Origin: an uncultured Clostridia bacterium
Lineage (GTDB): Bacteria > Bacillota > Clostridia > TANB77 > CAG-508
DNA length: 64,000 nucleotides
Assembly (NCBI GenBank): GCA_934162205.1
Contig: CAKPIA010000001.1
Location: 128,058-192,057, forward strand
Reading direction: 5' to 3'
Shown piece after piece: positions 12,824 through 52,377 of this stretch (within the stretch, counting starts at the first letter, position 1; each line of letters starts with the position of its first letter). The position numbers and the translations under genes are program-made. The notes below the pieces were generated by a model. That model made no database searches. It worked only from the letters and a program-made list of their open reading frames with translations, and had not been told where the DNA came from.

Positions 12824-13534
12824 ATGATAAATTTTATAATTTGTGATGATAATCAAATAATTCTAGATAAATTAGAAAAAATTTTAAATGATATATTTTC
12901 TAGAAATGGATTTGAAGCTCAAGTAGCATTAAAATCTACTAATGTTGACGAAGTTCTTGACTTCGTTACTTTTAACAAAGTGGATGTTTTAATTTTAGAT
13001 ATAAATTTAAAATCTAGACTTACAGGATTAGAACTTGCTCAAAAAGTAAGAGAATTTAATAAAGACTGCTATTTAATATTTACAACAGGTCATCTAGAAT
13101 ATGCAATGCTTGCTTATAAATTCAAAACTTTTGATTATTTAGCAAAACCTATCACATCTGAAAGATTAGAAGATACTATTATAAGATTGTTTGATGATAT
13201 GTTTGGACAACCTAAAAAATATATGAAAATAGATAATAAAAATACACTTATTAATGAAGCAGATATTCAATATATTAAAAGAGAAGGGATGAGGCTTGTT
13301 TACCACACCAGAGATATGGATTATTTTACTTATGGCTCTTTTAATAAAATTCAACCTTCGCTACCAGAAAATTTTATAAGATGTCACAAATCTTATATAG
13401 TAAATATAAATAATGTAAAAAATTATGATGCGACCACTAATACTATTAGTTTTGGTAATAGTGTTTCTTGTGCTGTTGGTCCTAAATATAAAAAGATAAT
13501 TATGGAGGTGTTAAACAATTATGGAAATAAATAA
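12824..13534 (+). CDS. agrA: LytTR-family response regulator (AgrA-like).
   Basis: Receiver domain (DVLILDINL) plus a C-terminal LytTR DNA-binding domain. Length is 236 aa. Confidence 0.85.
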   Translation: MINFIICDDNQIILDKLEKILNDIFSRNGFEAQVALKSTNVDEVLDFVTFNKVDVLILDINLKSRLTGLELAQKVREFNKDCYLIFTTGHLEYAMLAYKFKTFDYLAKPITSERLEDTIIRLFDDMFGQPKKYMKIDNKNTLINEADIQYIKREGMRLVYHTRDMDYFTYGSFNKIQPSLPENFIRCHKSYIVNINNVKNYDATTNTISFGNSVSCAVGPKYKKIIMEVLNNYGNK

Positions 13535-14864
13535 TATTTGGAGTGCTCTATCAAGTGAGAATATTGCAATTATAAATCTTATGAAATACATTGGAATGTT
13601 TATAGAAAGTTATCTTCTTCTTAAACTTTCTTTATCAGCCTTAAACGTAAATTCTTCTAAGAAACAACGAATATTATATGTTTTACTTTTAGGACTAGAA
13701 GGAATTATAAGTTCTTATATAATACCATCACCCTTAAATTTAATTACAAATTATTTTATTAATTTCTTATTAGTTTTATTCATTTTTAAAATAAAACCTT
13801 TAAAAGTAATTTTATTTATAATATTACCAATTTGTATTTTTGCTTTGTTGGGAACACTAATAATAAATCCTTATTTAACATTATTAGATATTACATACGA
13901 ACAAACCGAATCTATTCCAATTTACAGATTAGGTTATTTAGCAATAATGTATACTATTGTTGGTTTAATAATTTGTATCATCAAATGTAAAAATTTTAAA
14001 ATCGCAGTATTAGAAGAACTTGATAAAAAAACAAAATTAATTATAATAAGTAATTTTATTTTAGGATTAATTGTTTTATGTATTCAATTATTTATTAATT
14101 TTTATTATATTAATGAATTTCCTTTAATAATAACTTTTTTAAATTTTATATCTTTATTAGCTTATTTCTTTATAAGTATATATAGTTTAACTAGAGTAAC
14201 AAAATTATATAAAACTCAAAAACAATTAGAAAATTCAGAAGCTTATAATAAATCTTTATCAATATTACATGATAATATTAGATGTTTTAAACATGATTTT
14301 GATAACATTGTTGCAACAATCGGTGGATATGTAAAAACAGATGATATGGAAGGTCTTAAAAAATATTATTATCAATTAGAAGATGATTGTCAAAGAGTTA
14401 ACAATATTGCAACACTAAGTCCAGAAATAATAAATAATCCAGGTGTATATGCAATACTTAGTTCTAAATATCATAAAGCTGATGAAAAAAATATTAAAAT
14501 TAATTTAGAATTTTTCTTAGATTTAAACACACTTAATATGAAAATTTATGAATTTACTAGAATCTTTGGTATACTTTTAGATAATGCAATAGAAGCAAGT
14601 TCAGAATGTGAAGAAAAACTTATAAATATAAAATTTAGAAATGAAGAAAGCAAACATAGGCAAATTGTTGTTATTGAAAATACATTTAAAGATTCAAAAT
14701 TAAATATTGATGATATTTTTCAAAAAGGTGTATCTGGAAAAGAAAATCATACTGGACTTGGATTATGGGAAGTAAGACAAATTTTAAAGAAAAATAATAA
14801 CTTAAATTTACATACACAAAAATCTGAAAATATGTTTATTCAGCAACTTGAAATTTATTATTAA
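13521..14864 (+). CDS. agrC: AgrC-like (HPK10) sensor histidine kinase.
   Basis: Six to seven N-terminal TM helices, H-box FKHDFDN, N-box LLDNAIEAS, G-box GLGLWEV. It overlaps the regulator gene by 14 nt, suggesting translational coupling. Confidence 0.85.
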   Translation: MEINNIWSALSSENIAIINLMKYIGMFIESYLLLKLSLSALNVNSSKKQRILYVLLLGLEGIISSYIIPSPLNLITNYFINFLLVLFIFKIKPLKVILFIILPICIFALLGTLIINPYLTLLDITYEQTESIPIYRLGYLAIMYTIVGLIICIIKCKNFKIAVLEELDKKTKLIIISNFILGLIVLCIQLFINFYYINEFPLIITFLNFISLLAYFFISIYSLTRVTKLYKTQKQLENSEAYNKSLSILHDNIRCFKHDFDNIVATIGGYVKTDDMEGLKKYYYQLEDDCQRVNNIATLSPEIINNPGVYAILSSKYHKADEKNIKINLEFFLDLNTLNMKIYEFTRIFGILLDNAIEASSECEEKLINIKFRNEESKHRQIVVIENTFKDSKLNIDDIFQKGVSGKENHTGLGLWEVRQILKKNNNLNLHTQKSENMFIQQLEIYY

Positions 14865-14877
14865 TAAATACATAAAA

Positions 14878-14910
14878 AAATAACAGCCTTTATTGGCTGT
14901 TATTTTTTTG
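14878..14910. terminator. Bidirectional terminator between the convergent agrC and agrD.
   Basis: AATAACAGCC..GGCTGTTATT stem plus a T7 tract. Confidence 0.6.
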
Positions 14911-14961
14911 TAAAATGGTTTATTTTATAATATTTGCTAAGTTAGCATTATAAAATACTTA

Positions 14962-15081
14962 TTAGTCTTTTTTTATCATAGAAACTGGCATTTTAGGTTG
15001 ATGTAACAACCAAACTAAGAAACATGCTGTATTTGTTGTCTTTGCATACTTTTCTGCAATTTTTGCTAAAATTTTTAACAT
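14962..15081 (-). CDS. agrD: AgrD-like autoinducing peptide precursor of 39 aa. Not in the ORF track.
   Basis: Minus-strand ORF MLKILAKIAEKYAKTTNTACFLVWLLHQPKMPVSMIKKD with RBS AAGGGGGAA 6 nt upstream. It has an amphipathic leader, a single Cys followed by hydrophobics, then a charged HQP...P tail, as in the C. perfringens AgrD sequence recalled from memory (..SACLWFTHQPEEPK..). It lies 57 nt downstream of agrB. Confidence 0.75.
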   Translation of the reverse strand: MLKILAKIAEKYAKTTNTACFLVWLLHQPKMPVSMIKKD

Positions 15082-15138
15082 AAAAATTCCCCCTTTATTT
15101 TTAATTTTTATATAAGAAAAAATTTGTAATGTTTAATC

Positions 15139-15741
15139 TTAGTATACTTCATAACCATATTTATTATTAGTTAGTCTGTACATTACTTTAGTTATTGATA
15201 AGGTCTGAAGTAATGTTCCTATAATTAATATGTTAGATATTACATTATCTCTTATGAAAATTGCAGCTATCAAAGAAATTGTAGCTATAATATAAGAAGC
15301 TAATTGTTTCTTTCGTCTTACTTTAGTTTCTAAGATAGGTACTTCTTCTGTGTCAGCCGGTGCATAAAGTTTTATCATTGCCATCGAAAATATCCATATT
15401 AATGATATAAGAATATATTTAACAATATCATTTAAAACTATATATTGACTTACAAATGCAGTACCACAATATGTTAATGTTGTTGCTATTATGCAACCAA
15501 TATGTGTATGTAGGTGAAATCCTCCCGAAACTGATCTGTATGGCATTATTAATATAAAAGTTATTAGTGTTAATTTAAATATACCTAATATCCATGATAT
15601 TAATAATATTATAAAAATTTTTGGTATCTCACCTATTAAAATTTGTAGGCCATAATTGATGACTTGCGTTCTCTCATCATCAATTTCTGGCATTTTCTTT
15701 CGTATTTTGTTGGTTAAAAATAAGCAGATTTTGTCTATCAT
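15139..15741 (-). CDS. agrB: AgrB-family AgrD-processing membrane endopeptidase.
   Basis: 200-aa polytopic membrane protein with the conserved RSVSGGFHLHTHIGCIIATTL block (catalytic His/Cys). RBS is GAGGTGAGGTG. Confidence 0.85.
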   Translation of the reverse strand: MIDKICLFLTNKIRKKMPEIDDERTQVINYGLQILIGEIPKIFIILLISWILGIFKLTLITFILIMPYRSVSGGFHLHTHIGCIIATTLTYCGTAFVSQYIVLNDIVKYILISLIWIFSMAMIKLYAPADTEEVPILETKVRRKKQLASYIIATISLIAAIFIRDNVISNILIIGTLLQTLSITKVMYRLTNNKYGYEVY

Positions 15742-25263: not shown

Positions 25264-25461
25264 TTTTCCTCCATAACTTATAGTAATTATGTATTTCTCT
25301 ATAATTAATATATAATATTATTTAATAAAAGACAATATTATACTAACACTATTATTAGAAATTTTTAAAAAAACTTGCAACTTTTTTGGTATTATTGTAA
25401 TATAATAAAGTAAAATTGAAAGGCAAATAATAAAATTTAAAAGAAAGGAGTTTATTTATTA

Positions 25462-25640
25462 CATAGCGCCTGGACAGTTTATACTGTTGACGAGGACTAA
25501 AGTTATCGAAAAATTCGGCGGATGCTTTAGTGGCATAGCTACTGTCATAGATATTAATAAAAAACAATAGTGATATTGTAACAGAGTTAATATTAGTAGC
25601 TATTATTTGTATGCTTTCAATTCCAATAATATTTTTTAAG
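25462..25640 (+). ncRNA. glmS_ribozyme: glmS ribozyme (GlcN6P-responsive self-cleaving riboswitch).
   Basis: AGCGCCUGGACAGUU...GACGAGGA...GUUAUCGAAAAAUUCGGCGGAUGC core blocks immediately upstream of glmS. Confidence 0.8.
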
Positions 25641-25651: not shown

Positions 25652-27475
25652 ATGTGTGGAATTGTAGGTTATATAGGAACAAAAAAAGCCAGTCCTATAC
25701 TTATTAATGGGCTTTTAAAATTAGAATATAGAGGTTATGATTCAGCAGGAATTTCAACAATTGAAAATGGCTCTATATCAGTTATGAAAGATAAAGGAAG
25801 AGTAAAAAATTTATACGATTTAGACGGAATTAATGATTTAGTTGGAACTGTTGGTATTGCTCATACAAGATGGGCAACTCATGGAAAACCATCTAAAGAA
25901 AACTCTCATCCTCATTTAGATAATACAAATACTTTTTGTGTTGTACATAATGGAATAATTGAGAATTATAATGAATTGCGTGAATTTTTAAAAGATAATG
26001 GATATACTTTCTATTCTGAAACAGATACAGAAGTTATTCCAAATTTAATATCTTATTATTATAAAAAAGGAAATGATTTCTTAAAATCTGTAAATCTTAC
26101 TTGTAATGATTTAAAAGGAAGTTATGCAATTGAAGTTATTTGTAAAGATTTTCCAGACAATATGATTGTTGCAAGAAAAGATAGTCCTTTAGTAATTGGA
26201 AAAGCAGAAAATGAAACATTCATTTCTTCCGATATTCCAGCACTAATATCATTTACAAACACATTCTACTTTTTAAACGATAATGAGATGGCATATATAT
26301 CTAAAGATGATATTAAATTTTATGATAATACCCTAAACGAATTATCTAAAGAATTAACAACTGTAGAATTATCTGCTGATAGTGCTGATAAAGATGGATT
26401 TGAAGATTATATGTTAAAAGAAATTTTTGAACAACCAAAAGCAATAAGAGAAACTATTGGAACATCACTTAATGGTTCAAAAATTCATTTTGAAGGATTA
26501 AATTTAGCAAAAGAATATTTATCTACAATAAATAAAATTTATATGATAGCATGTGGTACTGCAATGCATGCAGGACTTGGTGTAAAATCTAATTTTGAAA
26601 CATTATGCAACATCCCAGTTACAGTTGAAGTTGCTTCAGAATTTAGATATAGAAATCCATTAATTGATGACAAAACTTTATGTATTTATATAAGTCAATC
26701 TGGTGAAACAGCAGATACAATTGCAGCTCTTAAACTTGCAAAATCAAAAGGTGCAAAAACAATTGCAGTTACAAATGTTATAGAAAGTTCTATAACTAGA
26801 GAAGCAGATTATTTTGTATATACTCATGCTGGTCCAGAAATAGCTGTTGCATCAACAAAAGCTTATACATCACAATTAGTTTTACTTAATATTATGGCTC
26901 TTTATTTTGCAGAAACATTAGAAAGTTGTTCTCAAAATAGAATTGATAATATTAAAAAAGAAATTTTAAAACTTTCTGAAAAAGCAGAAGAAATTCTAGA
27001 AAATACAGAAAAAATAAAAGAAATTGCTAAAAAGATTTCTTCACAAAAATATATGTTCTATTTAGGTAGAGGTATTGATTATCCAGTAGCCATGGAAGGT
27101 GCTTTAAAATTAAAAGAAATTTCTTATATTTTCGCAGAAGCTTATCCTTCTGGAGAATTAAAACATGGACCTATTGCTTTAATAGAAAATGGAGTTTCAG
27201 TTATAAATATATTAACAAATTCTACTTTAGTTGAAAAATCTTTAAGTAATGTTCAAGAAGTTGTAACTCGTGGTGCAAATTGTATTATAATTACAAATCA
27301 AGACTTTGATACATCTAGTTTTGAAAATGTAATAAAAATACCAGAAATTTCTGCACTTGTATCACCTATTTTATCTGTTATTCCTCTTCAATTACTTGCT
27401 TACTATATAACTAAAGAAAAAGGATTAGATGTTGATAAACCTAGAAATTTAGCAAAATCTGTAACTGTTGAATAA
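25652..27475 (+). CDS. glmS: Glutamine--fructose-6-phosphate aminotransferase.
   Basis: N-terminal MCGIVGYIG (Cys2 nucleophile), two SIS domains. Length is 607 aa. Confidence 0.95.
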   Translation: MCGIVGYIGTKKASPILINGLLKLEYRGYDSAGISTIENGSISVMKDKGRVKNLYDLDGINDLVGTVGIAHTRWATHGKPSKENSHPHLDNTNTFCVVHNGIIENYNELREFLKDNGYTFYSETDTEVIPNLISYYYKKGNDFLKSVNLTCNDLKGSYAIEVICKDFPDNMIVARKDSPLVIGKAENETFISSDIPALISFTNTFYFLNDNEMAYISKDDIKFYDNTLNELSKELTTVELSADSADKDGFEDYMLKEIFEQPKAIRETIGTSLNGSKIHFEGLNLAKEYLSTINKIYMIACGTAMHAGLGVKSNFETLCNIPVTVEVASEFRYRNPLIDDKTLCIYISQSGETADTIAALKLAKSKGAKTIAVTNVIESSITREADYFVYTHAGPEIAVASTKAYTSQLVLLNIMALYFAETLESCSQNRIDNIKKEILKLSEKAEEILENTEKIKEIAKKISSQKYMFYLGRGIDYPVAMEGALKLKEISYIFAEAYPSGELKHGPIALIENGVSVINILTNSTLVEKSLSNVQEVVTRGANCIIITNQDFDTSSFENVIKIPEISALVSPILSVIPLQLLAYYITKEKGLDVDKPRNLAKSVTVE

Positions 27476-27484: not shown

Positions 27485-27520
27485 AAACTCTTAGAATTTT
27501 ATTCTAAGAGTTCTTTTTTA
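27485..27520 (+). terminator. glmS terminator.
   Basis: AAACTCTTAGAAT..ATTCTAAGAGTT stem plus a T-tract. Confidence 0.65.
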
Positions 27521-27534: not shown

Positions 27535-27670
27535 ACTAACTATATATTGTTTTTCTATACCTTGCTGTCGCATCCTTCGGATTCCTTTCTAAGGAAGGAT
27601 GCTTCATTCGCCCTCCGCTACGCTCCGGTTGCTCGCTGCGCGGTATTTGAAAAACAATATATAGTTAGTC
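27535..27670 (-). repeat. MITE-like repeat, copy A (inverted relative to copies B and C).
   Basis: 21-bp perfect TIR ACTAACTATATATTGTTTTTC / GAAAAACAATATATAGTTAGT flanking a conserved GC-rich core with a nested hairpin (GCATCCTTC...GAAGGATGC). Confidence 0.8.
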
Positions 27671-27682
27671 TATTTTTAATTT

Positions 27683-27943
27683 TTATCCTATAAGTAATTT
27701 TATTAATATTAATGCAATTGCTCCTGGTATTCCTAAAATTCCAATAGCTATTGATGTAACTAAATTTAATCCTATATGAAACTCGAAACTACTTCCAATA
27801 ATATTAATCACATATATTAATCCTCCACCCAATATTGAATTAAAAACTAATTTTAAAACTTTTTTTACAGGTAAAGCAAACACTCTACCTATTAAGAACA
27901 AAAAACAAACACAAGCCAAAAAAGTTATTATATTTTGATTCAT
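27683..27943 (-). CDS. bofA: Pro-sigmaK processing inhibitor BofA.
   Basis: 86-aa two-TM protein. LNLVTSIAIGILGIPGAIALILIK matches the BofA consensus. Confidence 0.8.
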   Translation of the reverse strand: MNQNIITFLACVCFLFLIGRVFALPVKKVLKLVFNSILGGGLIYVINIIGSSFEFHIGLNLVTSIAIGILGIPGAIALILIKLLIG

Positions 27944-28012
27944 ACTTTCACCTCAAAAGATAGTAATAATTTCTTATTACTATCTTTATGATTTATTATG
28001 GACAAATATTAC

Positions 28013-28291
28013 TTATACTGCCTCATTTTCCATCCTTAATTTAAGTTCATTTATTCTATCCAATGCAATTCCTCTACTTTTAGCCATTCTTATTAAATAA
28101 TCCAGTTTTTCTTGGCTAGCTTTTATCTGATATGTGTAATAATCAATCATATCAAATTCTGCATGCTCAAAATTATTATTTGCATTTTGTAACTCTCTTT
28201 TTGCAGTCATTATACTTTTAATTAATTCCATTTTTTGTTCTTCTTCTGTCATTTCTAAAATCTTTTGTTCTCTTAGATATTCATTTTGCAT
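28013..28291 (-). CDS. YaaL-like protein (DUF2508).
   Basis: 92-aa charged protein in the conserved yaaL-bofA arrangement. Confidence 0.55.
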   Translation of the reverse strand: MQNEYLREQKILEMTEEEQKMELIKSIMTAKRELQNANNNFEHAEFDMIDYYTYQIKASQEKLDYLIRMAKSRGIALDRINELKLRMENEAV

Positions 28292-28352
28292 AATTATCTC
28301 CTATATATATTTTTTAGTATTATATGCCAACTATATAAATTTATTCAAAATT

Positions 28353-29180
28353 TTATACTAAACTATATATAACAATACCAATAGATTGAATAACAAAAAG
28401 ATTTAAAATATTTGATGTTAATAAATTATTTGTAGATTCTACAACTCCTAAAATTGCATCATTATTTTTTTTATGATGTTTTTGAGCTTCAAAAAAAGTA
28501 ATCAGTTCTGGAATGCTTGTTACAAATCCAAGTAAAATTCCTATAATTTTTTGTGGAATATTAAATATATTACACAAATTTTCTAAAGTATCTCCTAATC
28601 TATTTCCTATAAAAAATAGTATAATTCCGGTTACAAATAAATATATTATATATTTAATAACTTTCCCCTTTTCTTTAGAATTTTCTTTAATCTCTTCATC
28701 ATTTTCTTTTTCATTTAAATAAAATTTATGTGCATTATGATTTAATACTAAAAACAGGCTATATAGTAAAATAAATATTGGAACTAGTTGAATATTAACA
28801 TTAATTTTAAAAAGCATTATAATTATTGGAATTGCTATTGTTACTGCAACCATTATAATATCTATTTTTAATGCCCTATTTTTTAAAACCTTTTGATTTT
28901 TATTTAAAATAATTGCAAATACATATTGTATTAAATTTATAATGTTTGAACTTATTACATTATATATACTTGCACCTATCAATCCATTAAAACTTGATAT
29001 TCCAATTGTCAACAACTCTGGCATTGATGTTGCATAACCTGCAATATTTCCAACAATTCTTGGCTTTAAATTTAAACTTTCTGCTAATCTTCTTAAAACA
29101 CTTACTAATATATATTTAGATATTAATACAATTACCCCTAAATATATTATAAATTTTATAATTTCAAAAAATAAGCTCAT
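28353..29180 (-). CDS. Sodium/calcium exchanger family (CaCA) membrane protein.
   Basis: Two alpha-repeat motifs, GYATSMPELLT and GFVTSIPELIT. Confidence 0.8.
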   Translation of the reverse strand: MSLFFEIIKFIIYLGVIVLISKYILVSVLRRLAESLNLKPRIVGNIAGYATSMPELLTIGISSFNGLIGASIYNVISSNIINLIQYVFAIILNKNQKVLKNRALKIDIIMVAVTIAIPIIIMLFKINVNIQLVPIFILLYSLFLVLNHNAHKFYLNEKENDEEIKENSKEKGKVIKYIIYLFVTGIILFFIGNRLGDTLENLCNIFNIPQKIIGILLGFVTSIPELITFFEAQKHHKKNNDAILGVVESTNNLLTSNILNLFVIQSIGIVIYSLV

Positions 29181-29304
29181 TATTATTTTTCCTCTTTAAA
29201 TATTTTCTTTAAACTTTTTGTAATATTATTTCCAATTTATTGCTAATTATTATATTTTATTATATAATATGAACTATTAAAGTAATTTTATAGGGGGTAT
29301 TAAA

Positions 29305-30633
29305 ATGATTGATATAAAATTCTTAAGAGAAAATCCTGATATTGTTAAAGAAAATATTAAGAAAAAATTTCAAAATCATAAACTTTGTTTAGTAGATGAA
29401 GTTATTGATTTTGATAAAAAATATAGAGAAACAAAATTAAATGGTGATAATTTAAGAGCAGAAAGAAAATCATTAAGTTCTCAAATTGGAAATTTAATGA
29501 AAGCTGGTCAAAGAGATGAAGCTGAATCTGTAAAAAAACAAGTTGAAGAAATTAATGCAAAACTTTCTGAAAATGAAAAATTAGAGGAAGAATATTTTGA
29601 AGAAATAAAATCTAGAATGATGAAAATACCAAATATCATGCATGAATCTGTTCCTATAGGTGAAGATGATAGTAAAAATGTTGAATTACAAAGATATGGT
29701 GAACCTGTTGTTCCAGATTATGAAATTCCATATCATGGAGAAATAATGGAAAAACTTTGTGGATTAGATTTAGATAGTGCAAGAAGAGTTGCTGGACAAG
29801 GCTTCTATTATTTAATGGGTGATGTTGCTAGACTTCATTCTGCTGTATTAACATATGCTAGAGATTTCATGATTAATAAAGGTTTTACATATTGTATTCC
29901 ACCATATATGATTCGTAGTGAAGTTGTAACTGGTGTTATGAGTTTTGAAGAAATGGATGCAATGATGTATAAAATTGAAGGCGAAGATTTATACTTAATT
30001 GGTACTAGCGAACACTCTATGATTGGAAAATTTAAAGATCAAATTTTAAATAAAGCTGATATGCCTTATACTATGACATCTTATTCACCTTGTTTTAGGA
30101 AAGAAAAAGGTTCCCATGGATTAGAAGAACGTGGTGTTTATAGAATACATCAATTTGAAAAACAAGAAATGGTTGTTGTTTGTGAACCAGAAGATTCTTG
30201 GGAATGGTACAACAAAATGTGGTCATATACAGTAGAATTTTTTAGAAGTATGAATATTCCTGTTAGAACATTAGAATGTTGCTCTGGAGATTTAGCAGAT
30301 TTAAAAGCCAAAAGTGTTGATGTTGAGGCTTGGTCTCCTAGACAAAAAAAATATTTTGAAGTTGGAAGTTGTTCAAACTTAACAGATGCTCAAGCAAGAA
30401 GATTAGGAATAAGAATAAAAGGAGAAAATGGAAATTACTTTGCTCATACTCTTAATAACACAGTAGTTGCCCCACCTCGTATGTTAATTTCTATAATGGA
30501 AAATAATTACCAACCAGATGGAAGTGTTATTATTCCAGAAGTATTAAGACCATATATGGGTGGATTAGAAAAAATATCTCCAAAAGAACAAAAGCGGACA
30601 TTAATAACTTTTGTTCTTATTAAAACATTTTGA
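29305..30633 (+). CDS. serS: Seryl-tRNA synthetase. The C-terminus may be altered or extended.
   Basis: N-terminal coiled-coil arm and class II aaRS motifs. Length is 442 aa, about 15 aa longer than typical, with an atypical tail KRTLITFVLIKTF. Confidence 0.9.
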   Translation: MIDIKFLRENPDIVKENIKKKFQNHKLCLVDEVIDFDKKYRETKLNGDNLRAERKSLSSQIGNLMKAGQRDEAESVKKQVEEINAKLSENEKLEEEYFEEIKSRMMKIPNIMHESVPIGEDDSKNVELQRYGEPVVPDYEIPYHGEIMEKLCGLDLDSARRVAGQGFYYLMGDVARLHSAVLTYARDFMINKGFTYCIPPYMIRSEVVTGVMSFEEMDAMMYKIEGEDLYLIGTSEHSMIGKFKDQILNKADMPYTMTSYSPCFRKEKGSHGLEERGVYRIHQFEKQEMVVVCEPEDSWEWYNKMWSYTVEFFRSMNIPVRTLECCSGDLADLKAKSVDVEAWSPRQKKYFEVGSCSNLTDAQARRLGIRIKGENGNYFAHTLNNTVVAPPRMLISIMENNYQPDGSVIIPEVLRPYMGGLEKISPKEQKRTLITFVLIKTF

Positions 30634-30878
30634 AGTCCGCGTCTTTGTTCGTGCGTGAAATTTACAAAGCAAATTTCTGTGCAATATAATAATAATTTTT
30701 ATAAAATAGAAAATTACTTAATTTGTAATTTTCTATTTTTGTCTTTATAATAAGCAATAAATTAAGGTTTTTGTTGTATTTTACATAAAAACATGATATA
30801 ATTTTGCCATAGTAAGTTTTAGTAACCTTTAATATTTAAATTATTATTATTTTTTTAATTAAAAAGGAGGTACACATT

Positions 30879-32174
30879 ATGGGAAAAATTATTCCTTGTG
30901 TCACAGAAATCGTTGGAGCATACTGGGGCGACGAAGGTAAAGGCAGAGTTGCTGCTTTTGAAGCCCGGGATGCAAAATTGGTTTTAAGAACCACTGGTGG
31001 TAATAATGCTGGTCATACAGTGTATTACAATGGAGAAAAAATTCCACTTCATTTAATACCTGGAGGTATTATTTATGATCAAGCAACGGCAGTTATTTGC
31101 CAAGGAGTTGTTGTTGACCCCAAAGTTTTAAAGGACGAGATTGATTTACTTTCTAAGTATATCAATATTACTCCTGATAAACTTATTATTTCAGACTGTG
31201 CTCATCTCATTTTACCGCATCATATTGCCCTGGATAAGATTCAGGAAAATTTACGCGGTAATAATAAGATTGGCACTACAAAATCTGGAATCGGTCCATG
31301 TTATCATGACATGAGTGACCGGGTAGGCATTAGAATGATGGATTTATTCCGTTCTGAAGAAGGTCTTAAAGAACTTATTAAGACTGTATTACAGTTTAAT
31401 GCACCGGTTATGCAGTTAGAAGATATTTCGTATTCTGTTGAAGAGTACTATGATTTCTGTATGACTGCAAAGAAAAATATTGGTAAGTTCATAAAAAATG
31501 CTGAGCCTACAATTGATTTTGCCTTGAAAAATCATGACAAAATCGTCATTGAAGGTGCACAGGCAGATCATTTGGATATTCTTAACGGAGACTATCCAGA
31601 TTGTACAAGTTCACAGTGCAATCCATCTGGAACTCTTTCTGGTGCAGGAATTGGTCCTGTGTATGTTGAAAGAGTAATTGCAACTACAAAGGCATATTGT
31701 TCACGGGTAGGTAATGGTATTTTTCCTACAGAACTGGATGATGATGAAGGAGACATCATAAGAGAATTTGGCTACGAATATGGCACAACTACAGGTCGCC
31801 CACGAAGATGTGGCTGGTTAGACTTAGTTGCTCTAAGAACAGTAACTAGAGGCTATACCGATCTTTGTTTAAACCATTTGGATACAATCGGTTTAATAGG
31901 AAATAAACTTGGACATATAAAAATCTGTACAGGTTATACCTACAAAGGAGTTGTAACATACAACTTCCCTACTGACACAAAAATTAGCGGAAAATCGCCA
32001 AAACCACACTATAAAACATTTGATGGTGGTTGGGAAATTCCTGATAACTGTAGATCTTTTGATGAACTTCCAGAAAAAGCAAAGGAATTTGTTCTCTTTA
32101 TTGAAGAATACACTAAGATTCCTGTTAGCTATATTGGCATAGGTCCTAATAACGAAGATACAATCATTCGTTAA
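30879..32174 (+). CDS. purA: Adenylosuccinate synthetase with strongly atypical (higher) GC content.
   Basis: GDEGKGR P-loop, GGNNAGHT, and TTGRPRRCGW motifs. Length is 431 aa. Local GC is about 40-45% against about 22-25% in the flanks. It uses CGG/CCG/GGC codons that are rare elsewhere in the window. Confidence 0.9.
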   Translation: MGKIIPCVTEIVGAYWGDEGKGRVAAFEARDAKLVLRTTGGNNAGHTVYYNGEKIPLHLIPGGIIYDQATAVICQGVVVDPKVLKDEIDLLSKYINITPDKLIISDCAHLILPHHIALDKIQENLRGNNKIGTTKSGIGPCYHDMSDRVGIRMMDLFRSEEGLKELIKTVLQFNAPVMQLEDISYSVEEYYDFCMTAKKNIGKFIKNAEPTIDFALKNHDKIVIEGAQADHLDILNGDYPDCTSSQCNPSGTLSGAGIGPVYVERVIATTKAYCSRVGNGIFPTELDDDEGDIIREFGYEYGTTTGRPRRCGWLDLVALRTVTRGYTDLCLNHLDTIGLIGNKLGHIKICTGYTYKGVVTYNFPTDTKISGKSPKPHYKTFDGGWEIPDNCRSFDELPEKAKEFVLFIEEYTKIPVSYIGIGPNNEDTIIR

Positions 32175-32195
32175 AATTATCACCAAAACTTACTA

Positions 32196-32235
32196 AGCTA
32201 AGTCACTCTATATAGAGTGACTTAGTATTTTATAT
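32196..32235 (+). terminator. purA terminator.
   Basis: TAAGTCACTCTATATAGAGTGACTTAG palindrome plus a T-run. Confidence 0.6.
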
Positions 32236-32328
32236 ATAAGAATATCTTGTCAAACTATATTTGTTATTATCTTGAAAAAAGCTGTTAAATATGTTATTAT
32301 AAATATATTAATTTAAAGGAGAAAAAAT

Positions 32329-32913
32329 ATGATAGTTCAAAATCCTAAATTTGAAATTTCAGCAGTAAAACCAAGTCAATATCCTACAAATAATTTGCCA
32401 GAAATTGTTTTAGTTGGAAAATCTAATGTTGGAAAATCAAGTTTTATAAATACAATGATAAATAGAAAAAAATTAGCTAGAACAAGTAGTGAACCAGGAA
32501 AAACAAGACAAATTAATTTTTATAATATTGATGAAACCTTTTATTTTGTTGATTTACCTGGTTATGGCTATAGTAAAATGTCTAAACAAGAACAAGTAAA
32601 AGTTGGAAATTTTATTGAAGAATATTTATTTAAAAGACAACAAATTTCTTTAATTATATTTTTAATTGATATAAGGCACTCTCCTACTGCTAATGATAAA
32701 CTTATGTATAATTATGTTATTAGATCAAAATTACCTTTTATTATACTTGCAAATAAAGCTGATAAAATTGCTATAACAAAAGTTTCTGACCAAGTAAGTA
32801 ATTTATTAAAAGAAATAAATCCAATTGGTGATGCAACTTGTTTACCATTTTCTTCTGAAAGAAAAATTTATAAAGAAGATGTTTGGAATATTATTGATGA
32901 ATATATTAAATAA
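32329..32913 (+). CDS. engB: Ribosome biogenesis GTPase EngB/YihA/YsxC.
   Basis: VGKSNVGKSSFIN G1 motif, DLPGYG, NKADK. Confidence 0.9.
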   Translation: MIVQNPKFEISAVKPSQYPTNNLPEIVLVGKSNVGKSSFINTMINRKKLARTSSEPGKTRQINFYNIDETFYFVDLPGYGYSKMSKQEQVKVGNFIEEYLFKRQQISLIIFLIDIRHSPTANDKLMYNYVIRSKLPFIILANKADKIAITKVSDQVSNLLKEINPIGDATCLPFSSERKIYKEDVWNIIDEYIK

Positions 32914-32977
32914 AAGCAAATATATGAACCTAAATTTTTTAAGTTCATATATCTGTTTTTTTATTTATATATTTTTT

Positions 32978-33226
32978 CTAGCATCTTCTTATTTTACATG
33001 CACATAGTTTGTATATTACCAATAAAATAAAGAAAAATCCTAAAATTGATGCAGTTGCAATTAATACTCCTAAATTTCCTGTAAGTGTTGATACATAAAC
33101 TGTTCCTAATATTAATCCAATAACTCCTAATATAAATGCAAATACTATTCCTATAATGATATTTAAACAACAACATGCCCTTTTATCACATTTGTTATAG
33201 TTCTCTGGTTCCATCATATTATCCAC
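32978..33226 (-). CDS. Small Cys-rich membrane protein of 82 aa.
   Basis: Two TM helices flanked by CDKRACCC and CACKIRRC. Confidence 0.4.
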   Translation of the reverse strand: MDNMMEPENYNKCDKRACCCLNIIIGIVFAFILGVIGLILGTVYVSTLTGNLGVLIATASILGFFFILLVIYKLCACKIRRC

Positions 33227-33350
33227 CTCCTACCATAGCATTGATTTGCTATAGTATATATTATTCATTTTATTTTTAGTTGTTACACTTTTCGACATTA
33301 TTTTTAATTTAAGATGATTTATATAATTTTGTGCAATATCATACAAACAA

Positions 33351-33477
33351 TTTATATATATGTTTTGTAATGTCGCATAGCGAGCAACCGGAGCGTAGCG
33401 GAGGGAAAATGAAGCATCCTTCCTTAGAAAGGAATCCGAAGGATGCGACAACAAGACATAAAAAACATATATATAAA
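33351..33477 (+). repeat. MITE-like repeat, copy B.
   Basis: TIR CAATTTATATATATGTTTT / AAAACATATATATAAATTG flanking the same core as copies A and C. Confidence 0.8.
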
Positions 33478-33563
33478 TTGCTGCTTAATAAATATTGGTA
33501 TAAGATTTATAAATAAATTATAAAATAAAAGTAATTCACATTAGTGAATTACTTTTATTTTAT

Positions 33564-39132: not shown

Positions 39133-40479
39133 TTAAAATCCATATGCTGAAAATAAGAAGTTACCCATATAAACTTGAACACATGGTACTAATACTACTA
39201 TAACAAAGAATATTAATACAACTCCTACTATTGAATAAACAACCTCCGGTAAAACTTTCATTATTTTTTCTAAAGTATTATCTATATCAATATCCATATA
39301 TTCTACAAGTTTTTCAACCATTTCTGTTAAATCTGTTTGCATACCAATTTTTAGCATTTCTGTTTCCATTGATGATGATAAATTTGATTTTTCAAAAGGT
39401 TCGATCCAAGAATCTCCTACTAATACATTGTTTATTGCTGTTTCTATCATAGATAACATTACATAGTTTTGTACTACGTTTTTACTTACTTCTAATGCAT
39501 CCTGAACCCTCATTCCATTTTTTAAGTTTAAAAGCATTGCCTTCATAAATCTTGAAAAATCCAATGAATAAATTAGTTTTCCAAAAATCGGCATTGTATA
39601 TTTAAAATAGTGAAAATTATATTTTCCTTTTGGTGTATTTATATAAAATAATATTGCTACTATAACTCCAGTAATAAGCATAAGAGGAATATACCAAAAC
39701 TCTATAAGTAAATTTACTACCTTTTGGAACCATAAAGTTATAGCTGGAAGTGTATCTTTTGTACCTAATTCTTCAAAAACATGTTGTATAGCTGGTATTG
39801 CAAATAATGTTCCAACAAAAAGCATTATTATTAATAAAACAAATTGTACCAAATTAGGAATTAAAATACCTCTTAATTTTTTTGTTACTCTTTCAGAATC
39901 ATCTAAATATTTTACAGCTTGTTTTAATGAGTTCTCAAGTGATCCTGATAATTCTCCAACTTTTATCATATTTATATAAATATATGGAAATACATTAGAA
40001 TAATATTCCATAGTTGTATACATATTTTCTCCTGCTTCAACCCCTGCTAATATATCTTCTAATATTCCCCTTAACGTATAATTTTCTGTACTATTAATTA
40101 TTGTAGTTAATGCATGTATATTATTAAAGTTAGCTTTTTTCAATAAGTAAAAGTTTTGAGTAAATACAACTAGATCTCTTGATGTTATACGTTCAGATTT
40201 TGCTAAATAAAGCATAGCTTTTTCTTTTGTTGACAATGATCTTTGTTTAGTTCTACTTACATTAGTTGTTGTTACATTTTTCATTATTTCTTGAATATCT
40301 GTAACATTTCTTTTTTGCTGTCTCTTTTGCTTAGATCTATATGCAACTTGATCAACCGATATTGGAATTATATTATTATTTTTTAATTTTTTAATTAAAA
40401 TTTGTTTACTTACTTCTTCTACTCTATTCCTTATTATTTGACCACTTTCAGTTACTGCTTTATAAATATATATTGGCAC
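39133..40479 (-). CDS. pilC: Type IV pilus platform protein PilC (GspF family).
   Basis: Two GspF repeats and three TM segments. Length is 448 aa. Confidence 0.85.
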   Translation of the reverse strand: MPIYIYKAVTESGQIIRNRVEEVSKQILIKKLKNNNIIPISVDQVAYRSKQKRQQKRNVTDIQEIMKNVTTTNVSRTKQRSLSTKEKAMLYLAKSERITSRDLVVFTQNFYLLKKANFNNIHALTTIINSTENYTLRGILEDILAGVEAGENMYTTMEYYSNVFPYIYINMIKVGELSGSLENSLKQAVKYLDDSERVTKKLRGILIPNLVQFVLLIIMLFVGTLFAIPAIQHVFEELGTKDTLPAITLWFQKVVNLLIEFWYIPLMLITGVIVAILFYINTPKGKYNFHYFKYTMPIFGKLIYSLDFSRFMKAMLLNLKNGMRVQDALEVSKNVVQNYVMLSMIETAINNVLVGDSWIEPFEKSNLSSSMETEMLKIGMQTDLTEMVEKLVEYMDIDIDNTLEKIMKVLPEVVYSIVGVVLIFFVIVVLVPCVQVYMGNFLFSAYGF

Positions 40480-40500
40480 AAATTACACCTCCTTATACTT

Positions 40501-41598
40501 TTATCCTTTTTTTATCTTTAATTGCATTATTGTTCTATTTAATGTCTCAATATTTTTTTCTTCTATTTGTGACTTAGCTTGTTCTAAAGTTATTTTATCA
40601 TCAACAAACAATTCTGCAATTGAATTAATTAATCCTATACTTCCTTTATCTAAATTACTTTGTATAGCATCTTCTATTTCTGAAACACTTATTTTTTCTT
40701 TTCTAATTATTCCCGCAACAATATTGTCAACAACCATTACTTCAGGAACTAATACTAATTTTCCATCAATTCCTTGTAGTAATCTTTGAGATAATACTAA
40801 TTTTAGTACTGAAGATAATAAATATTTTATACTTGCTTGATCTCTAACTTCATAGAAATTTATCATTCTATCTATTGTTTCTGCACAAGATTTTGTGTGC
40901 AATGTTCCTATTACTAAATGCCCTGACTCTGCCATTTCTATTGCTGCTTCCATAGTTACTTTATCTCTAATCTCTCCTATTACTAAAATATCACAGTCTT
41001 CTCTTAAAGAGTTTTTAACACCATCACTAAATGTTAATACATCTTTTCCTTTTCCTACTTCTTTTTGAACTATTAAAGATTTTTTTGAATGATGCTTATA
41101 TTCTATCGGATTTTCTAGTGTTAGTATTTTTTTGTTTTGGTTTTCATTTATTTCATTTATTAATGCATTTAATGTTGTTGTTTTTCCAGAGTTTGTTTTT
41201 CCAGTTACTAATATTAGTCCTTGTGGTTGATATGTCATTCTCCTTATTATATCTGGAACTCCTAATGATTCATATGTTGGCAATTCATTTTTTATTAATC
41301 TTAATGTACATATAGTCATATTATCTGCCAATGAAATATTTACTCTTAAACGTATTCCTTTATATTCATAAGATGTGTCAAGTTTTCTAGTAGTTCTATA
41401 AACCTCATCAGCGTCAACACTACCCTTTATTAGAAAATCATATATTTCTGTCATATCTTCTTCTGTCAACACATCCATTTCTTCAATTTCTTCTAATCTT
41501 CTCATTATTCTAAGTATTGGTTTATTATTACTTACTAAATGCACATCTGAAGCATCTCTTGCAATTGCTTCATCTAATATCTTATTCATGTCAACCAT
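40501..41598 (-). CDS. pilT: Type IV pilus retraction ATPase PilT.
   Basis: 365 aa. Walker A VTGKTNSGKTTT, Asp box, His box. No N-terminal GspE_N domain. Confidence 0.85.
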   Translation of the reverse strand: MVDMNKILDEAIARDASDVHLVSNNKPILRIMRRLEEIEEMDVLTEEDMTEIYDFLIKGSVDADEVYRTTRKLDTSYEYKGIRLRVNISLADNMTICTLRLIKNELPTYESLGVPDIIRRMTYQPQGLILVTGKTNSGKTTTLNALINEINENQNKKILTLENPIEYKHHSKKSLIVQKEVGKGKDVLTFSDGVKNSLREDCDILVIGEIRDKVTMEAAIEMAESGHLVIGTLHTKSCAETIDRMINFYEVRDQASIKYLLSSVLKLVLSQRLLQGIDGKLVLVPEVMVVDNIVAGIIRKEKISVSEIEDAIQSNLDKGSIGLINSIAELFVDDKITLEQAKSQIEEKNIETLNRTIMQLKIKKG

Positions 41599-41623
41599 GT
41601 TTTTTCCTCCGTTTAATTATATT

Positions 41624-43297
41624 TTAATATATTAGTAATTTTCTGTTTAACTCTTCCAAGTTAGTTTTTCCCTCAATTACTTTTTCAATACCATCTACTA
41701 TAAATGGTTTATAATCTTCTTCTAGTGCTTTTCTCATTATTTCTATACTAGATGCACCTTTCATTATTAATTCCTTAATATTATCTGTTATATCTAGTAT
41801 TTCAAATATTCCCATTCTATCTAAATATCCTGTATTATTACATTCCTTACAACCTACAGCATCATATGTTACCTTATTTTTCAAGTCAAATTCACAATTA
41901 TATTGTTTTCCTATTTTTTCAATTATATTTATTTCATCATCTGTAAATTTTCTTTCTTTCATACAATGTGGGCATAATTTTCTTACTAATCTTTGAGAAA
42001 TTGTTGTAGCTAAAGTACTAGCTATATCATAATCAGATAATCCCATTTTTCTTAATCTAGTTATTACTTCTACACTATTTATTGTGTGAATTGTTGATAA
42101 TACATAGTGTCCAGTTTGTCCAGCTTGTATTGCAATTTCTGCTGTTTCTCTATCTCTTATTTCTCCAACTAAGATTATATCTGGGTCTTGTCTTAATACT
42201 GTTCTTAATGATTCAGAAAATGTAATATTTTTGTCAATTTCTATTTGATTTAATCCATCTATTCTTATCTCTACTGGATCTTCTATTGTTGTTATATTTA
42301 TTTCTGGACTATTTAAATAATCAATTATACTATATAATGTTGTTGTTTTTCCTTCACCTGTAGGTGCAGCCATTATTGTCATACTATTTCTTTTATTTAT
42401 ACTTTTCTTCAATTTATCCTCTTCTGCTGGGAATCCTAATTCTAATATATTTTTAATATCAGAATCTTTTTTTAATAATCTTAAAACAAATTTTTCTCCA
42501 TAAACATTTTTTTGAGAAGATACACGAATATTATAGTCATCATATAATAATATTCTACCATCTTGTGATTCTTGTTTTTCTTGGTGCATATTTGATATAG
42601 CTTTTAATCTTCCAATCATTTGTGTTTGTTTATCTTTAGATATATTAGCAGCAGTATAAAGTTCACCATCAATTCTATATCTTACACGTACAGAATCTTC
42701 CATTGGCTCTATATGAATATCACTTGCTCTTTTTTCCATACCAGTTTTTATTATATTATCTATTAATTCTGTAATTGTATTCCCTTGTTCTGTAATATTT
42801 AAACTTTCAGATGCACTTCCTTCAGATGCTTTTAAATATTTTAATATATCACTCTCAAATGTTATATAAGAATCCATTATTAGACCTTTATTTAACATTA
42901 ATAATCTAATTGTTTCTATTGCTTTACTATTTGATGTTTCTGCAAAACACACTTTTATTCTACTATTTTCAATATCAAATGGTATAACTTTGTTTTTCTT
43001 TGCAACTTCCATTGAAATATAATCTGTAAGGTTTAATTTTATATCATAAGGTTTTAAAACAATTCCTTTTTCTCCTAATATTTCCCCTATTGCTTTTATT
43101 AATATATCAGAATCACATACTTGTAAAGTATATAATATATCACCTAATCTCATATTAGGATGTTTTCTTTGATATTGTAACGCCTCATCTATATTAGCTT
43201 CTGTTACAATTCCTCTTTTTACTAATTCTACTCCAATAGGTTGTCTTCTTCTTACTTCCATAATACTTCTTCCTTTCTTAGAATCTCTTACTTCCAT
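41624..43297 (-). CDS. pilB: Type IV pilus assembly ATPase PilB (GspE family).
   Basis: GspE_N domain, Walker A APTGEGKTTTL, tetracysteine CPHC...CKEC. The true start may be at the internal Met at about 43261. Confidence 0.85.
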   Translation of the reverse strand: MEVRDSKKGRSIMEVRRRQPIGVELVKRGIVTEANIDEALQYQRKHPNMRLGDILYTLQVCDSDILIKAIGEILGEKGIVLKPYDIKLNLTDYISMEVAKKNKVIPFDIENSRIKVCFAETSNSKAIETIRLLMLNKGLIMDSYITFESDILKYLKASEGSASESLNITEQGNTITELIDNIIKTGMEKRASDIHIEPMEDSVRVRYRIDGELYTAANISKDKQTQMIGRLKAISNMHQEKQESQDGRILLYDDYNIRVSSQKNVYGEKFVLRLLKKDSDIKNILELGFPAEEDKLKKSINKRNSMTIMAAPTGEGKTTTLYSIIDYLNSPEINITTIEDPVEIRIDGLNQIEIDKNITFSESLRTVLRQDPDIILVGEIRDRETAEIAIQAGQTGHYVLSTIHTINSVEVITRLRKMGLSDYDIASTLATTISQRLVRKLCPHCMKERKFTDDEINIIEKIGKQYNCEFDLKNKVTYDAVGCKECNNTGYLDRMGIFEILDITDNIKELIMKGASSIEIMRKALEEDYKPFIVDGIEKVIEGKTNLEELNRKLLIY

Positions 43298-43362
43298 TAT
43301 ACTTTATTTGTTTATAAATTTGTTGTTTTTTCGAAAATTACATATATTTACTAGTTTTTACA

Positions 43363-43839
43363 TTATTTTGAAGTTTTTAGTGTATATGTTGTATCTCTGG
43401 TATTTCCATTTACTGTTATTGTTACTTTTAATTTGTAATTTTTTTCATCACTAACATCCTCAAATTTACAATTATCGATATTGCTACATATTTTTATTTT
43501 ATTCAAATATATTGATTGATTTTTAAATGTATATTGTGTATATCCTAAATTTCCAATCTTTTCATCTTTATCATTTGGATTATAAAAAATAATGTAATTA
43601 TCATTTTTTCCGATATTTTGAGTATTACAATCATAAATAATATTTCCAGATTGATTAACTTCTTCTGTAAGAAATGTATTTAATTTTGTTATTTCTTCCA
43701 TTGAAGTTGTGTTATTTGATAATTTATTAACATTTCCGTAGTAATATCTTGTTATTACAGCTATTATGCCAACAATAATTATCATTGCTACAATATATAT
43801 AATTATTGAAGTAATTGTAATTCCCTTTTCAGATTTCAT
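43363..43839 (-). CDS. Pilin-like / minor pseudopilin (class III signal peptide lacking Glu5).
   Basis: MKSEKG|ITITSIIIYIVAMIIIVG. It sits in the pilus operon. Confidence 0.55.
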   Translation of the reverse strand: MKSEKGITITSIIIYIVAMIIIVGIIAVITRYYYGNVNKLSNNTTSMEEITKLNTFLTEEVNQSGNIIYDCNTQNIGKNDNYIIFYNPNDKDEKIGNLGYTQYTFKNQSIYLNKIKICSNIDNCKFEDVSDEKNYKLKVTITVNGNTRDTTYTLKTSK

Positions 43840-43850
43840 TTTTTCTCCTT

Positions 43851-44270
43851 TTAATTATTTAATATCCATGTATATATATTTAGGTTTTGTTCATTTTTTC
43901 CTACTAAGTATTTAACATTAACTGTAACTTTTTTTGCAACATGAGTACCATCTGTGTTAATTTCATTAAATTGTAATACATCTGTCTCATTTTCACATTT
44001 GGTATCTATTGTGTAACCATTTAAACTTGCATATTTTGAATCAATATATGATTTTAAATAATCTTCTGTAAGATTTTCAAAACTTGTTCCTTTAGCATAT
44101 TCTAGTATATCAATCATTATAGATGTTGCTTTTTCTTTTCTTTCTACTTTCTTTGACTCTATTGCAAAATTATATAAAACTGTTGTTATTATTCCTGCAA
44201 ATATTATAACAATTATTATTGCAATTGATATATCTATTCCTGTAAATCCATTACTTTTTCTTAAATTCAT
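43851..44270 (-). CDS. Pilin-like / minor pseudopilin.
   Basis: MNLRKSNG|FTGIDISIAIIIVIIF has a prepilin-like leader with Asp at +5. Confidence 0.55.
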   Translation of the reverse strand: MNLRKSNGFTGIDISIAIIIVIIFAGIITTVLYNFAIESKKVERKEKATSIMIDILEYAKGTSFENLTEDYLKSYIDSKYASLNGYTIDTKCENETDVLQFNEINTDGTHVAKKVTVNVKYLVGKNEQNLNIYTWILNN

Positions 44271-44288
44271 ATATCTTCTCCTTTTAAC

Positions 44289-45077
44289 TTAAGAAACTAA
44301 AAATGTAATAATTAAAAATACTATTATATTTGAAATGCTTAAAAAATATCCAATTGGTAATTTATATGTTGCCTTTGTTTTTATTGATTTGTTTTTTATT
44401 TTATATATTAATAAATAAATTGCAATTGCAAATAAGGCAATTATTATTGTATTTATTGTTACATATTCAGCAGTAAATATAATCATTATTGTTAATAATG
44501 TTAAAATTCCAATTGTATAATTTTCTTTTTTCTTCTTTTTTGTTATTATAAACTGAACTATTGTAAGTAACACATATATTGCCAAATATATAATATATCT
44601 ATATATACTAACTTTTTCTATTATATATAGATATACTATATATAAAACTGAAATTACTCCACCAAATATTAGTACAGATTTGTCTATTTTTATATTTTCT
44701 TTATCTATTCCTGCTATTAAAAATATAAATGTTAAATATAGAATTACAAAAATAAAATAAATATATAAATTTATACTTGTTTGCATATTTATATTTAATG
44801 ATAAAGCAAATAATAAAAATGTTAATCCAGACATAATTTCAAAAATTATATATCTAGGGCTTATTTTTTTACCACAATGTTTGCATTTTCCTTTTAAAAA
44901 TATATAACTTAAAACTGGAATCAACTCAAAAAAACCTAATTTTGAATTACAATTAGGGCAATAAGAGTGTGTATGTGTTATATCTTGTTTTATTGGTATT
45001 CTATATGTTGCAAGTGTAAAAAAGCTTCCAAATAATGTTCCAATTATAAATATTGTTATATATATTATTGTATTCAT
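44289..45077 (-). CDS. pilD: Prepilin peptidase PilD (A24 family).
   Basis: N-terminal CxxC...CxxC zinc motif and polytopic membrane topology. Length is 262 aa. Confidence 0.8.
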   Translation of the reverse strand: MNTIIYITIFIIGTLFGSFFTLATYRIPIKQDITHTHSYCPNCNSKLGFFELIPVLSYIFLKGKCKHCGKKISPRYIIFEIMSGLTFLLFALSLNINMQTSINLYIYFIFVILYLTFIFLIAGIDKENIKIDKSVLIFGGVISVLYIVYLYIIEKVSIYRYIIYLAIYVLLTIVQFIITKKKKKENYTIGILTLLTIMIIFTAEYVTINTIIIALFAIAIYLLIYKIKNKSIKTKATYKLPIGYFLSISNIIVFLIITFLVS

Positions 45078-45154
45078 TTATTTTCCTACCCTTTATAGAA
45101 ATTTAGGCATATACATATAATGCATATGCCTTTTATTAAATTTCAATTGATTAA

Positions 45155-45577: not shown

Positions 45578-45673
45578 TTGAAATCCTCCTTCTTTATAAA
45601 ATTTTCTTTTGTATATATTTATTTAAATAAATATAACCTAACTCTAATAAATTTTTACATCCTTTTTGTTTTA

Positions 45674-46132: not shown

Positions 46133-46148
46133 TTTTAATTCCTTTCTT

Positions 46149-52333: not shown

Positions 52334-52377
52334 ATTAAAACTAAATATTTTATTTTTACAAGTTATCAATTATAAAA

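Follow-up and report, generated by a model that had tools for sequence, protein, structure and literature searches.

What is the unit of about 135 bp that lies three times in the window (the whole stretch of 64,000 nucleotides of Clostridia DNA that was analysed), how did its copies arise and why have they been kept? An initial annotation had placed three copies of a MITE-like element in intergenic positions, and these copies (c1, c2 and c3; Table 1) were recovered with a 37-nt core pattern that gave three matches in the window and none in 100 shuffles, alignment of the copies revealing an invariant block of about 85 nt. The GC-rich core in AT-rich DNA was likewise borne out, the GC content of the window being 22.5-28.9% and that of the core lying far above its surroundings. 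All copies are bounded by AT-rich terminal inverted repeats (TIRs) of 19-22 bp, with arms of 21 nt that are 100% complementary in c1, 22 nt (95%) in c2 and 19 nt (95%) in c3, and YTATATAYTGTTTT is found in the TIRs of c1 and c2. The annotated TIRs hold as far as these arms go, but their outermost bases are copy-specific, yet complementary. The core of the family is asymmetric in that its 5' and 3' halves are not mutual reverse complements, and only the TIRs, a 5-bp stem and a 9-bp stem pair. All three window copies match perfectly in the 9-bp stem GCATCCTTC/GAAGGATGC, as had been described, and the stem encloses a variable apical loop; the 5' half of the core, AGCGAGCAACCGGAGCG(T)TAGCGGAGGGCGAATGA, is conserved and largely unpaired in the predicted fold. 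An outer GTCGCA/TGCGAC stem, taken for a family feature, is present in c2 only of the window copies, the family-wide stem being the 5-bp ATRYC/GRYAT. The ORFs over the elements are spurious or unsupported, leaving a non-coding, TIR-bounded unit shorter than 300 bp, as in a MITE.

Copy c1 lies between the glmS terminator and the stop codon of bofA, two convergent genes, and c3 in the spacer of the convergent genes spoVAEb and rplT, whereas c2 has the DUF951 terminator on one side and the start of an 82-aa ORF on the other. Placement at the 3' ends of genes, as annotated, is only partly right, since c2 also lies upstream of the 82-aa ORF and a further copy, c4 (see below), lies between divergent genes.

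Table 1. Coordinates of the repeat copies, the hairpins beside them and other features of the window.
Feature	Position	Strand	Details
Copy c1	27535..27669	-	arms 27535-27555 / 27649-27669; core 27556-27648, sense on - strand; 9-bp hairpin 27570-27602
Copy c2	33348..33480	+	arms 33348-33369 / 33459-33480; 9-bp hairpin 33414-33446
Copy c3	52377..52510	+	arms 52377-52395 / 52492-52510; 9-bp hairpin 52444-52476
glmS intrinsic terminator, bidirectional	27486..27512	+	adjoins c1; outside the repeat
DUF951 intrinsic terminator	33520..33563	-	20-bp stem, 4-nt loop ATTA; adjoins c2
Bidirectional terminator common to spoVAEb and rplT	52556..52592		also in sister lineage without the element
Outer hairpin around c3	52335..52551		inverted repeat TTAAAACTAAATATTTT (52335-52351) / AAAATATTTAGTTTTAA (52535-52551); encloses 183-nt segment 52352-52534
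Segment between c1 and c2 (bofA to 82-aa ORF)	27670..33347		inverted in some strains
82-aa ORF beside c2	32978..33226	-
Stretch between c2 and the DUF951 terminator	33481..33519
glmS ribozyme/riboswitch (RF00234)	25454..25604	+	94 bits; directly upstream of glmS
glmS	25652..27475
agr-type quorum-sensing cluster	12824..15741		LytTR response regulator, GHKL histidine kinase, AgrB
Type IV pilus / type II secretion-like cluster	39133..48529		T2SSF, two T2SSE ATPases, prepilin peptidase, then several ORFs without Pfam match
TraG/VirD4-like coupling protein (TraG-D_C), 769 aa	54032..56341	+	adjoins infC-rpmI-rplT

Among the other features of the window, the gene for the TraG/VirD4-like protein has the same position in all strains and in the sister lineages, with no other conjugation genes nearby.

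To find further copies, a strict two-anchor pattern was scanned over one genome per species (GTDB representatives). It matched three loci, all in one uncultured Clostridia metagenome-assembled genome (MAG) from Hadza gut samples, two of them (L001 and L002) being orthologues of window loci at about 95% identity and the third (L003) an additional site, c4. A relaxed pattern was scanned over metagenome contigs, with counts that are minimum values; among the matches listed, all those of low GC content came from the same species, recovered c3 and c4 again and added a c1/c2 hybrid (L098) as well as one further site, c5 (L058, L099), whose sequence is more divergent. The family comprises at least five loci (c1-c5) with unrelated flanks, c4 and c5 being on other contigs, and as far as the scans reach it is known from one uncultured gut Clostridia species. 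BLASTN against plasmid and phage collections gave no match to the element, and of two patterns scanned over viral contigs one gave zero matches and the other only unrelated high-GC contigs. Five of the latter (L036-L040, about 69% GC) share GGCAACCGGAGCG(N)AGCGGAGGGCGGCAGCC, matching 24 nt of the core, which was judged to be a chance or structural-motif resemblance.

The other matches listed in the relaxed scan belonged to an integron attC family or to a repeat present in high copy number in a single high-GC metagenome, or were singletons (about 20). Many unrelated matches among those listed carry the motif CC-GGA-GCGNAGC-GGA-GG at a hairpin tip, in which GCGNAGC is a mini-hairpin of the GNA-triloop type. 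The sequence CCGGAGCGNAGCGGAGG stands at the hairpin tip both in the attC family (TAACGCC...CACCGGTGACAAAACCGGAGCGAAGCGGAGGTTTTGGCATCCGGTG...GGTTAKG, on contigs of 36-61% GC; metagenome loci L041-L160, e.g. L045, L068, L085, L119) and in the repeat of about 70 copies in the high-GC metagenome Ga0190275. Matches sharing CCGGAGCGNAGCGGAGG were rejected as homologues, the motif being a structural one of hairpin tips and partly forced by the search pattern.

Segregating sites were counted at c3 across 20 strains and compared using Fisher tests. In the element outside the apical loop 5 of 117 sites were segregating, compared with 11 of 51 in the flanking spacers (p = 0.001) and 11 of 62 at the 4-fold degenerate sites of spoVAEb (p = 0.005), so that the polymorphism of the element is 4-5 times below that of either; the apical loop had 4 segregating sites out of 15. 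Similarly, pairwise divergence at the 4-fold sites of neighbouring genes was 2-20%, as against about 1-2% between orthologous elements. Homogenisation between copies is not the cause of this low variation, because orthologues still bear the signatures of their own copy. Conservation is highest in the 5' half of the core, which is predicted to be unpaired; AGCGAGCAACCGGAGCGTAGCGGAGGG is a conserved stretch of the element. This reduced polymorphism indicates constraint on the element. Purifying selection on fixed orthologous copies is unexpected for a purely selfish element and counts against the explanation that we favour below.

On both strands the folding energy of the whole element was far below that of shuffles, both as RNA (z between -4.5 and -8.9) and as DNA (z between -4.8 and -9.1). 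The core alone reached z values of -0.5 to -1.0, and the nested-hairpin core of the initial annotation has to be given up in the sense that the core by itself (z about -0.9) is no more structured than shuffled sequence. The 5-bp stem is found family-wide and covaries between copies. In the outer helix both sides had changed in 13 of 27 pairs among 12 distinct copies, and 94.7% of cells were paired, compared with 36-50% when the partners were slid; the inner 9+2-bp helix is invariant among the same 12 copies. The arms became perfectly matched in L176 and L182, and the outer inverted repeat at c3 shows a compensated change between lineages (ACTAAAT/ATTTAGT versus ACCAAAT/ATTTGGT). The covariation of the outer helix is no proof of an RNA, because template switching yields such patterns without selection: it is known to cause inversion of the loop or spacer, homogenisation of the arms and multiple compensatory changes (PMC8794818, PMC8604942). 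The practical lesson is that even strong covariation is unusable in such a stem as proof of a functional RNA.

These data bear on the possibility that the element is a multi-copy structured RNA gene or a cis-acting module (a small RNA or an mRNA leader), its spread as a repeat being secondary. We regard this as unlikely, even though the GC-rich core, in a genome of 25% GC, exceeds neutral proxies 4-5 times in conservation and each strand offers a candidate signal. The antisense strand has a C-rich CCCUCC stretch as might be found in a small RNA, and the sense strand has GGAGG-N4-ATG followed by an ORF of 23-35 codons (MKHPSLERNPKDATTRHKK...), as might be found in a leader. The GGAGG and the ATG are invariant and the variable positions concentrate in the apical loop and the GGAGG-ATG spacer, while in c5 a 3-nt deletion keeps the frame and one pair of the 9-bp stem is a T.G wobble. 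The same ORF speaks against a conserved small peptide, which was rejected given that about 13 of its 14 substitutions were non-synonymous by alignment inspection; searches by protein words from the two spurious ORFs that cover the core, aimed at diverged copies, gave no candidates, a collection of 15 billion proteins holding no ORF that shared words with either core frame. The core alone being no more stable than shuffles also argues against this reading, as does the result from Rfam. The initial annotation had recognised no named family, and cmscan agreed: with gathering thresholds only the glmS ribozyme was found in the window, and in a scan by E-value the best match on c3 was SscA (E = 0.7, 19 bits), far under the threshold of 60 bits. 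Predicted promoter and terminator signals within the element were at chance level and not common to the copies examined, and its orientation relative to neighbouring genes is not conserved.

The last point concerns all three window loci, at each of which both orientations are found among strains. For c1, a segment of 121 bp in L002 is inverted relative to the window (99% identity), and for c2 the same is true of 132 bp in L001 (97.7% identity). Flipped c2 was also found in L028-31 and L033, and the two orientations of c2 occur among strains in a ratio of 5:5. Among 12 contigs of the same lineage (L004-013, L057, L107) c3 is flipped in 2, and a second lineage has it flipped in 3 of 8 contigs. 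Single assemblies combine the orientations independently, c3 being flipped and c2 not in ERZ916619 and the reverse in ERZ28618363. An assembly artefact was rejected as the source of the flips, given that flipped alleles carry linked substitutions and recur in independent assemblies; moreover, inverted repeats of 17-22 bp are shorter than final assembly k-mers, which counts against such an artefact. When the flipped c3 alleles were computationally unflipped they carried the markers of their own lineage, and at least two independent inversions must therefore have occurred at c3. Within a lineage the flipped c3 alleles share private changes, so that their scatter on the flank tree may be due in large part to recombination, and the sharing of flipped alleles within lineages may likewise reflect recombination and not repeated flipping. 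Flipped haplotypes differ from unflipped ones also by extra substitutions and, at c2, by a non-homologous flank of 40-55 bp (see below), which counts against the explanation favoured below.

The inversion end-points were in the YTATATAYTGTTTT TIR at c1 and c2 but in the outer inverted repeat at c3, which is unrelated in sequence, so that the inverted unit there is the 183-nt segment consisting of c3 and its spacers (Table 1). Comparison of c1, c2 and c3 did not reveal a common recombinase recognition sequence at the end-points. Ordinary terminator hairpins flip as well: the loop of the DUF951 terminator is TAAT instead of ATTA in strains with flipped c2, and in a sister species the 12-nt loop of a terminator (about 1890-1935) is reversed between L161 and L162. 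Among 135 perfect hairpins that have orthologues and a stem of 7 bp or more, at most one loop flip was seen. Inversion of hairpin loops would on these comparisons be a general mutational feature of this clade. The different end-points, together with the flipping of ordinary terminator loops, make inversion through the hairpins, or template switching, more likely than a dedicated invertase.

A dedicated invertase would be needed if the copies formed a family of invertons, in which a recombinase encoded elsewhere flips the segment and reorients a signal in the core (a hairpin or terminator, a promoter or a small gene) relative to the neighbours. The cwpV and flgB switches of C. difficile are similar in size to the element (about 95-183 bp between inverted repeats of 17-22 bp), several lineages and all three loci have both orientations, there is constraint on the sequence, and the rarity of flips among ordinary hairpins (no more than 1 in 135) would also be expected. 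We nevertheless consider this improbable, because c3 uses an outer inverted repeat unrelated to the TIRs of c1 and c2, because a terminator loop in the window and another in the sister species flip too, and because the flipped alleles bear substitutions of their own and resemble old haplotypes. In addition, a recombinase is absent from the 64-kb window, promoter-like signals are at chance level and unconserved between copies, and c1 and c3 lie between convergent genes. A related proposal would be that the core is a domesticated module (a small RNA, a leader or a protein-binding site) carried in invertible hairpins, with orientation acting as a heritable on/off or sense/antisense polymorphism, kept up in the population and more than mutational noise, in a multi-locus "shared-cargo inverton" family; we think that this is rather improbable.

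Copies also recombine with each other. Copies c1 and c2 are in opposite orientation 5.8 kb apart, and in L017 bofA is followed by a hybrid element, consisting of the 5' part of c1 and the 3' part of c2, and then by DUF951 on the opposite strand. This junction is the product that would be expected if the segment between c1 and c2 (Table 1) were inverted by recombination within the cores. Hybrid elements were also seen at the ends of contigs L018 and L022 and at the start of L098, which are from other samples, and in half of the c1 contigs the assembly breaks inside the element, the usual signature of a repeat.

Two further observations were made around the copies. Between c2 and the DUF951 terminator a stretch of 40-55 bp, compared between the window and L001/L028-33, is completely non-homologous between the two haplotype groups, with flanks that are about 95-100% identical, and the window is itself a recombinant at c2, with the left flank from one haplotype and the core and right flank from the other. 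At c5 (L099 3575-3790) two convergent genes have stop codons that overlap with the outer inverted repeat GTAGTAGAAGTTAAATA / TATTTAACTTCTACTAC, so that the predicted proteins of both end in VVEVK*, which suggests that an inverted copy of the 3' end of one gene rewrote the C-terminus of the other.

About 50 contigs from the same species and sister lineages were obtained by exact-protein look-ups. All same-species strains carry c1, c2 and c3, whereas in lineages with flanks 85-86% identical to those of the window the spoVAEb/rplT spacer carries no element. In L161-163 and L164-172 this spacer has only a bidirectional terminator of 27-47 bp, and in L173 it has about 105 bp of unrelated sequence and the same second terminator; the sister spacers are otherwise non-homologous, and a precise empty site is absent among them. 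The absence of the element in sister lineages identifies it as an addition at spoVAEb/rplT and fits gain by insertion over local duplication. The MITE reading of the initial annotation agrees with a dispersed non-coding repeat with TIRs at five or more loci with unrelated flanks, but the target-site duplications that it had proposed to look for in the flanks were not seen, no consistent direct repeat being present at the five sites (a 2-bp TA inside the TATATA ends is possible), and for a MITE the copies are few. The 64-kb window was found to contain no autonomous partner element, transposase or site-specific recombinase; a Pfam search of 40 of its ORFs showed genes for housekeeping, sporulation, an agr-type system and a type IV pilus, the other large ORFs being housekeeping. 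Dispersal and the pattern of presence and absence would point to insertion by a transposase-like agent.

The lack of target-site duplications would also fit an element active as single-stranded DNA, which would serve in priming like an sso or, like a REP, as the substrate of an HUH enzyme (RAYT/IS200-type), and would be recognised in its folded hairpin form while the DNA is replicated or transferred, and the insertion of c3 and c5 into hairpin loops fits enzymes that target single-stranded DNA. The element has two GCGYAGC modules, of the type of the GNA-triloop DNA mini-hairpin, and the related tip motif CC-GGA-GCGNAGC-GGA-GG recurs in the integron attC family and other repeats, although the likeness to attC and REP is partly forced by the search pattern and the element does not consist of two inverted REPs. 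The TAGCG motifs of the element (TAGCGA and TAGCGG only) resemble the CS-6 sequence TAGCGT, and in size and palindromic fold it is like ssoA, which is about 160 nt (PMC5703833, PMC4598088). However, ssoA is defined by a conserved RSB and by CS-6 in a terminal loop (PMC4598088, PMC5703833), whereas the RSB-like ATGCCG stretch of the element varies and covaries, and sso function is strictly orientation-dependent (PMC5703833) while the orientation here is free. Given, in addition, the absence of similarity to any plasmid and a context in the core chromosome and not in a plasmid or ICE, identity with ssoA was rejected, and we assign activity as single-stranded DNA in general a low probability. Finally, an immobile repeat spread by local segmental duplication or gene conversion, the case that the initial annotation had set against mobility, would agree with three copies within 25 kb and with recombination between c1 and c2, but is very improbable given the unrelated flanks at five loci, the position of c4 and c5 on other contigs and the orthologous site of sister lineages without the element.

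Taken together, the explanation that we favour, at a probability of roughly one half, is an undescribed family of MITE/REP-like palindromic repeats, low in copy number and restricted to one species, whose evolution is driven by hairpins and whose copies are retained under selection. The AT-rich TIRs and the 5-bp stem close a long hairpin around the asymmetric GC-rich core. According to this model copies would have been inserted into intergenic spacers, often in or beside terminator hairpins, by a trans-acting agent with no gene in the vicinity. After insertion the segment between the arms would invert through intramolecular template switching or recombination of the arms, and homogenisation of the arms would give rise to the "compensatory" changes. 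Separately, the cores of about 95 nt would recombine homologously and generate the 5.8-kb c1/c2 inversion. The copies would now be kept by purifying selection, most likely because the hairpin or the conserved single-stranded stretch, or both, has a putative role in binding or as a structure at RNA 3' ends or for insulation.

An undescribed repeat family has thereby been added to an uncultured lineage of Clostridia that is widespread in the human gut. In it the evolution of long hairpins on bacterial chromosomes can be followed in a clear natural case, with flips of 93-183-nt spacers, homogenisation of arms and repeat-mediated inversions of 5.8 kb, and the elements disrupt metagenome assemblies and generate structural variation at the strain level. 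Should transcription of the conserved GC-rich core, or binding to it, be shown, the core would count as a new regulatory element whose orientation polymorphism is built in.

With regard to known systems, the likeness to ssoA of rolling-circle plasmids consists of an imperfect palindrome of about 130-160 nt with a TAGCG motif that is richer in GC than the host DNA; the present element differs in being chromosomal and multi-copy, in its unfixed orientation and in lacking an RSB or sequence similarity to plasmids. Hairpin inversions by template switching (quasipalindrome mutagenesis; PMC8794818, PMC8604942) share with it the inversion of spacers, homogenised arms, clustered compensatory changes and dependence on stem length. 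The inverted spacers of 93-183 nt are long for this process, and template switching is a mutational process and not an element family, which would account for the evolution of the copies but not for their identity. Invertons such as cwpV and flgB of C. difficile, which are flipped by RecV, are similar in that a short segment between inverted repeats of about 20 bp occurs in both orientations. In this family, by contrast, the same cargo is present at several loci with differing inverted-repeat end-points, a recombinase is absent from the window, a conserved promoter was not found and c1 and c3 have no downstream gene to be regulated.

The REP/BIME and REPIN-RAYT systems share with the element that they are palindromes outside genes with a GC content above that of the genome; likewise, they lack target-site duplications, lie between convergent genes, are vertically inherited and conserved, and have GTAG beside small hairpins. 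The element is not an inverted pair of REPs but a long AT-rich TIR stem around an asymmetric core, and no RAYT (Y1 transposase) gene is present in the 64-kb window. The pneumococcal RUP, BOX and SPRITE repeats, bcr1 of B. cereus, the Correia element of Neisseria and ERIC resemble it in being non-coding, intergenic and TIR-bounded units of 100-170 bp that form a long hairpin, often near terminators, and in being species-restricted substrates for recombination. In comparison with them, target-site duplications (five sites) and a cognate IS (64-kb window) were not found here and the copies number about five. The family is further set apart from them by an asymmetric GC-rich core in a 25% GC genome, by TIR ends that are copy-specific and complementary, by orientation polymorphism at all loci and by the constraint on its fixed copies.
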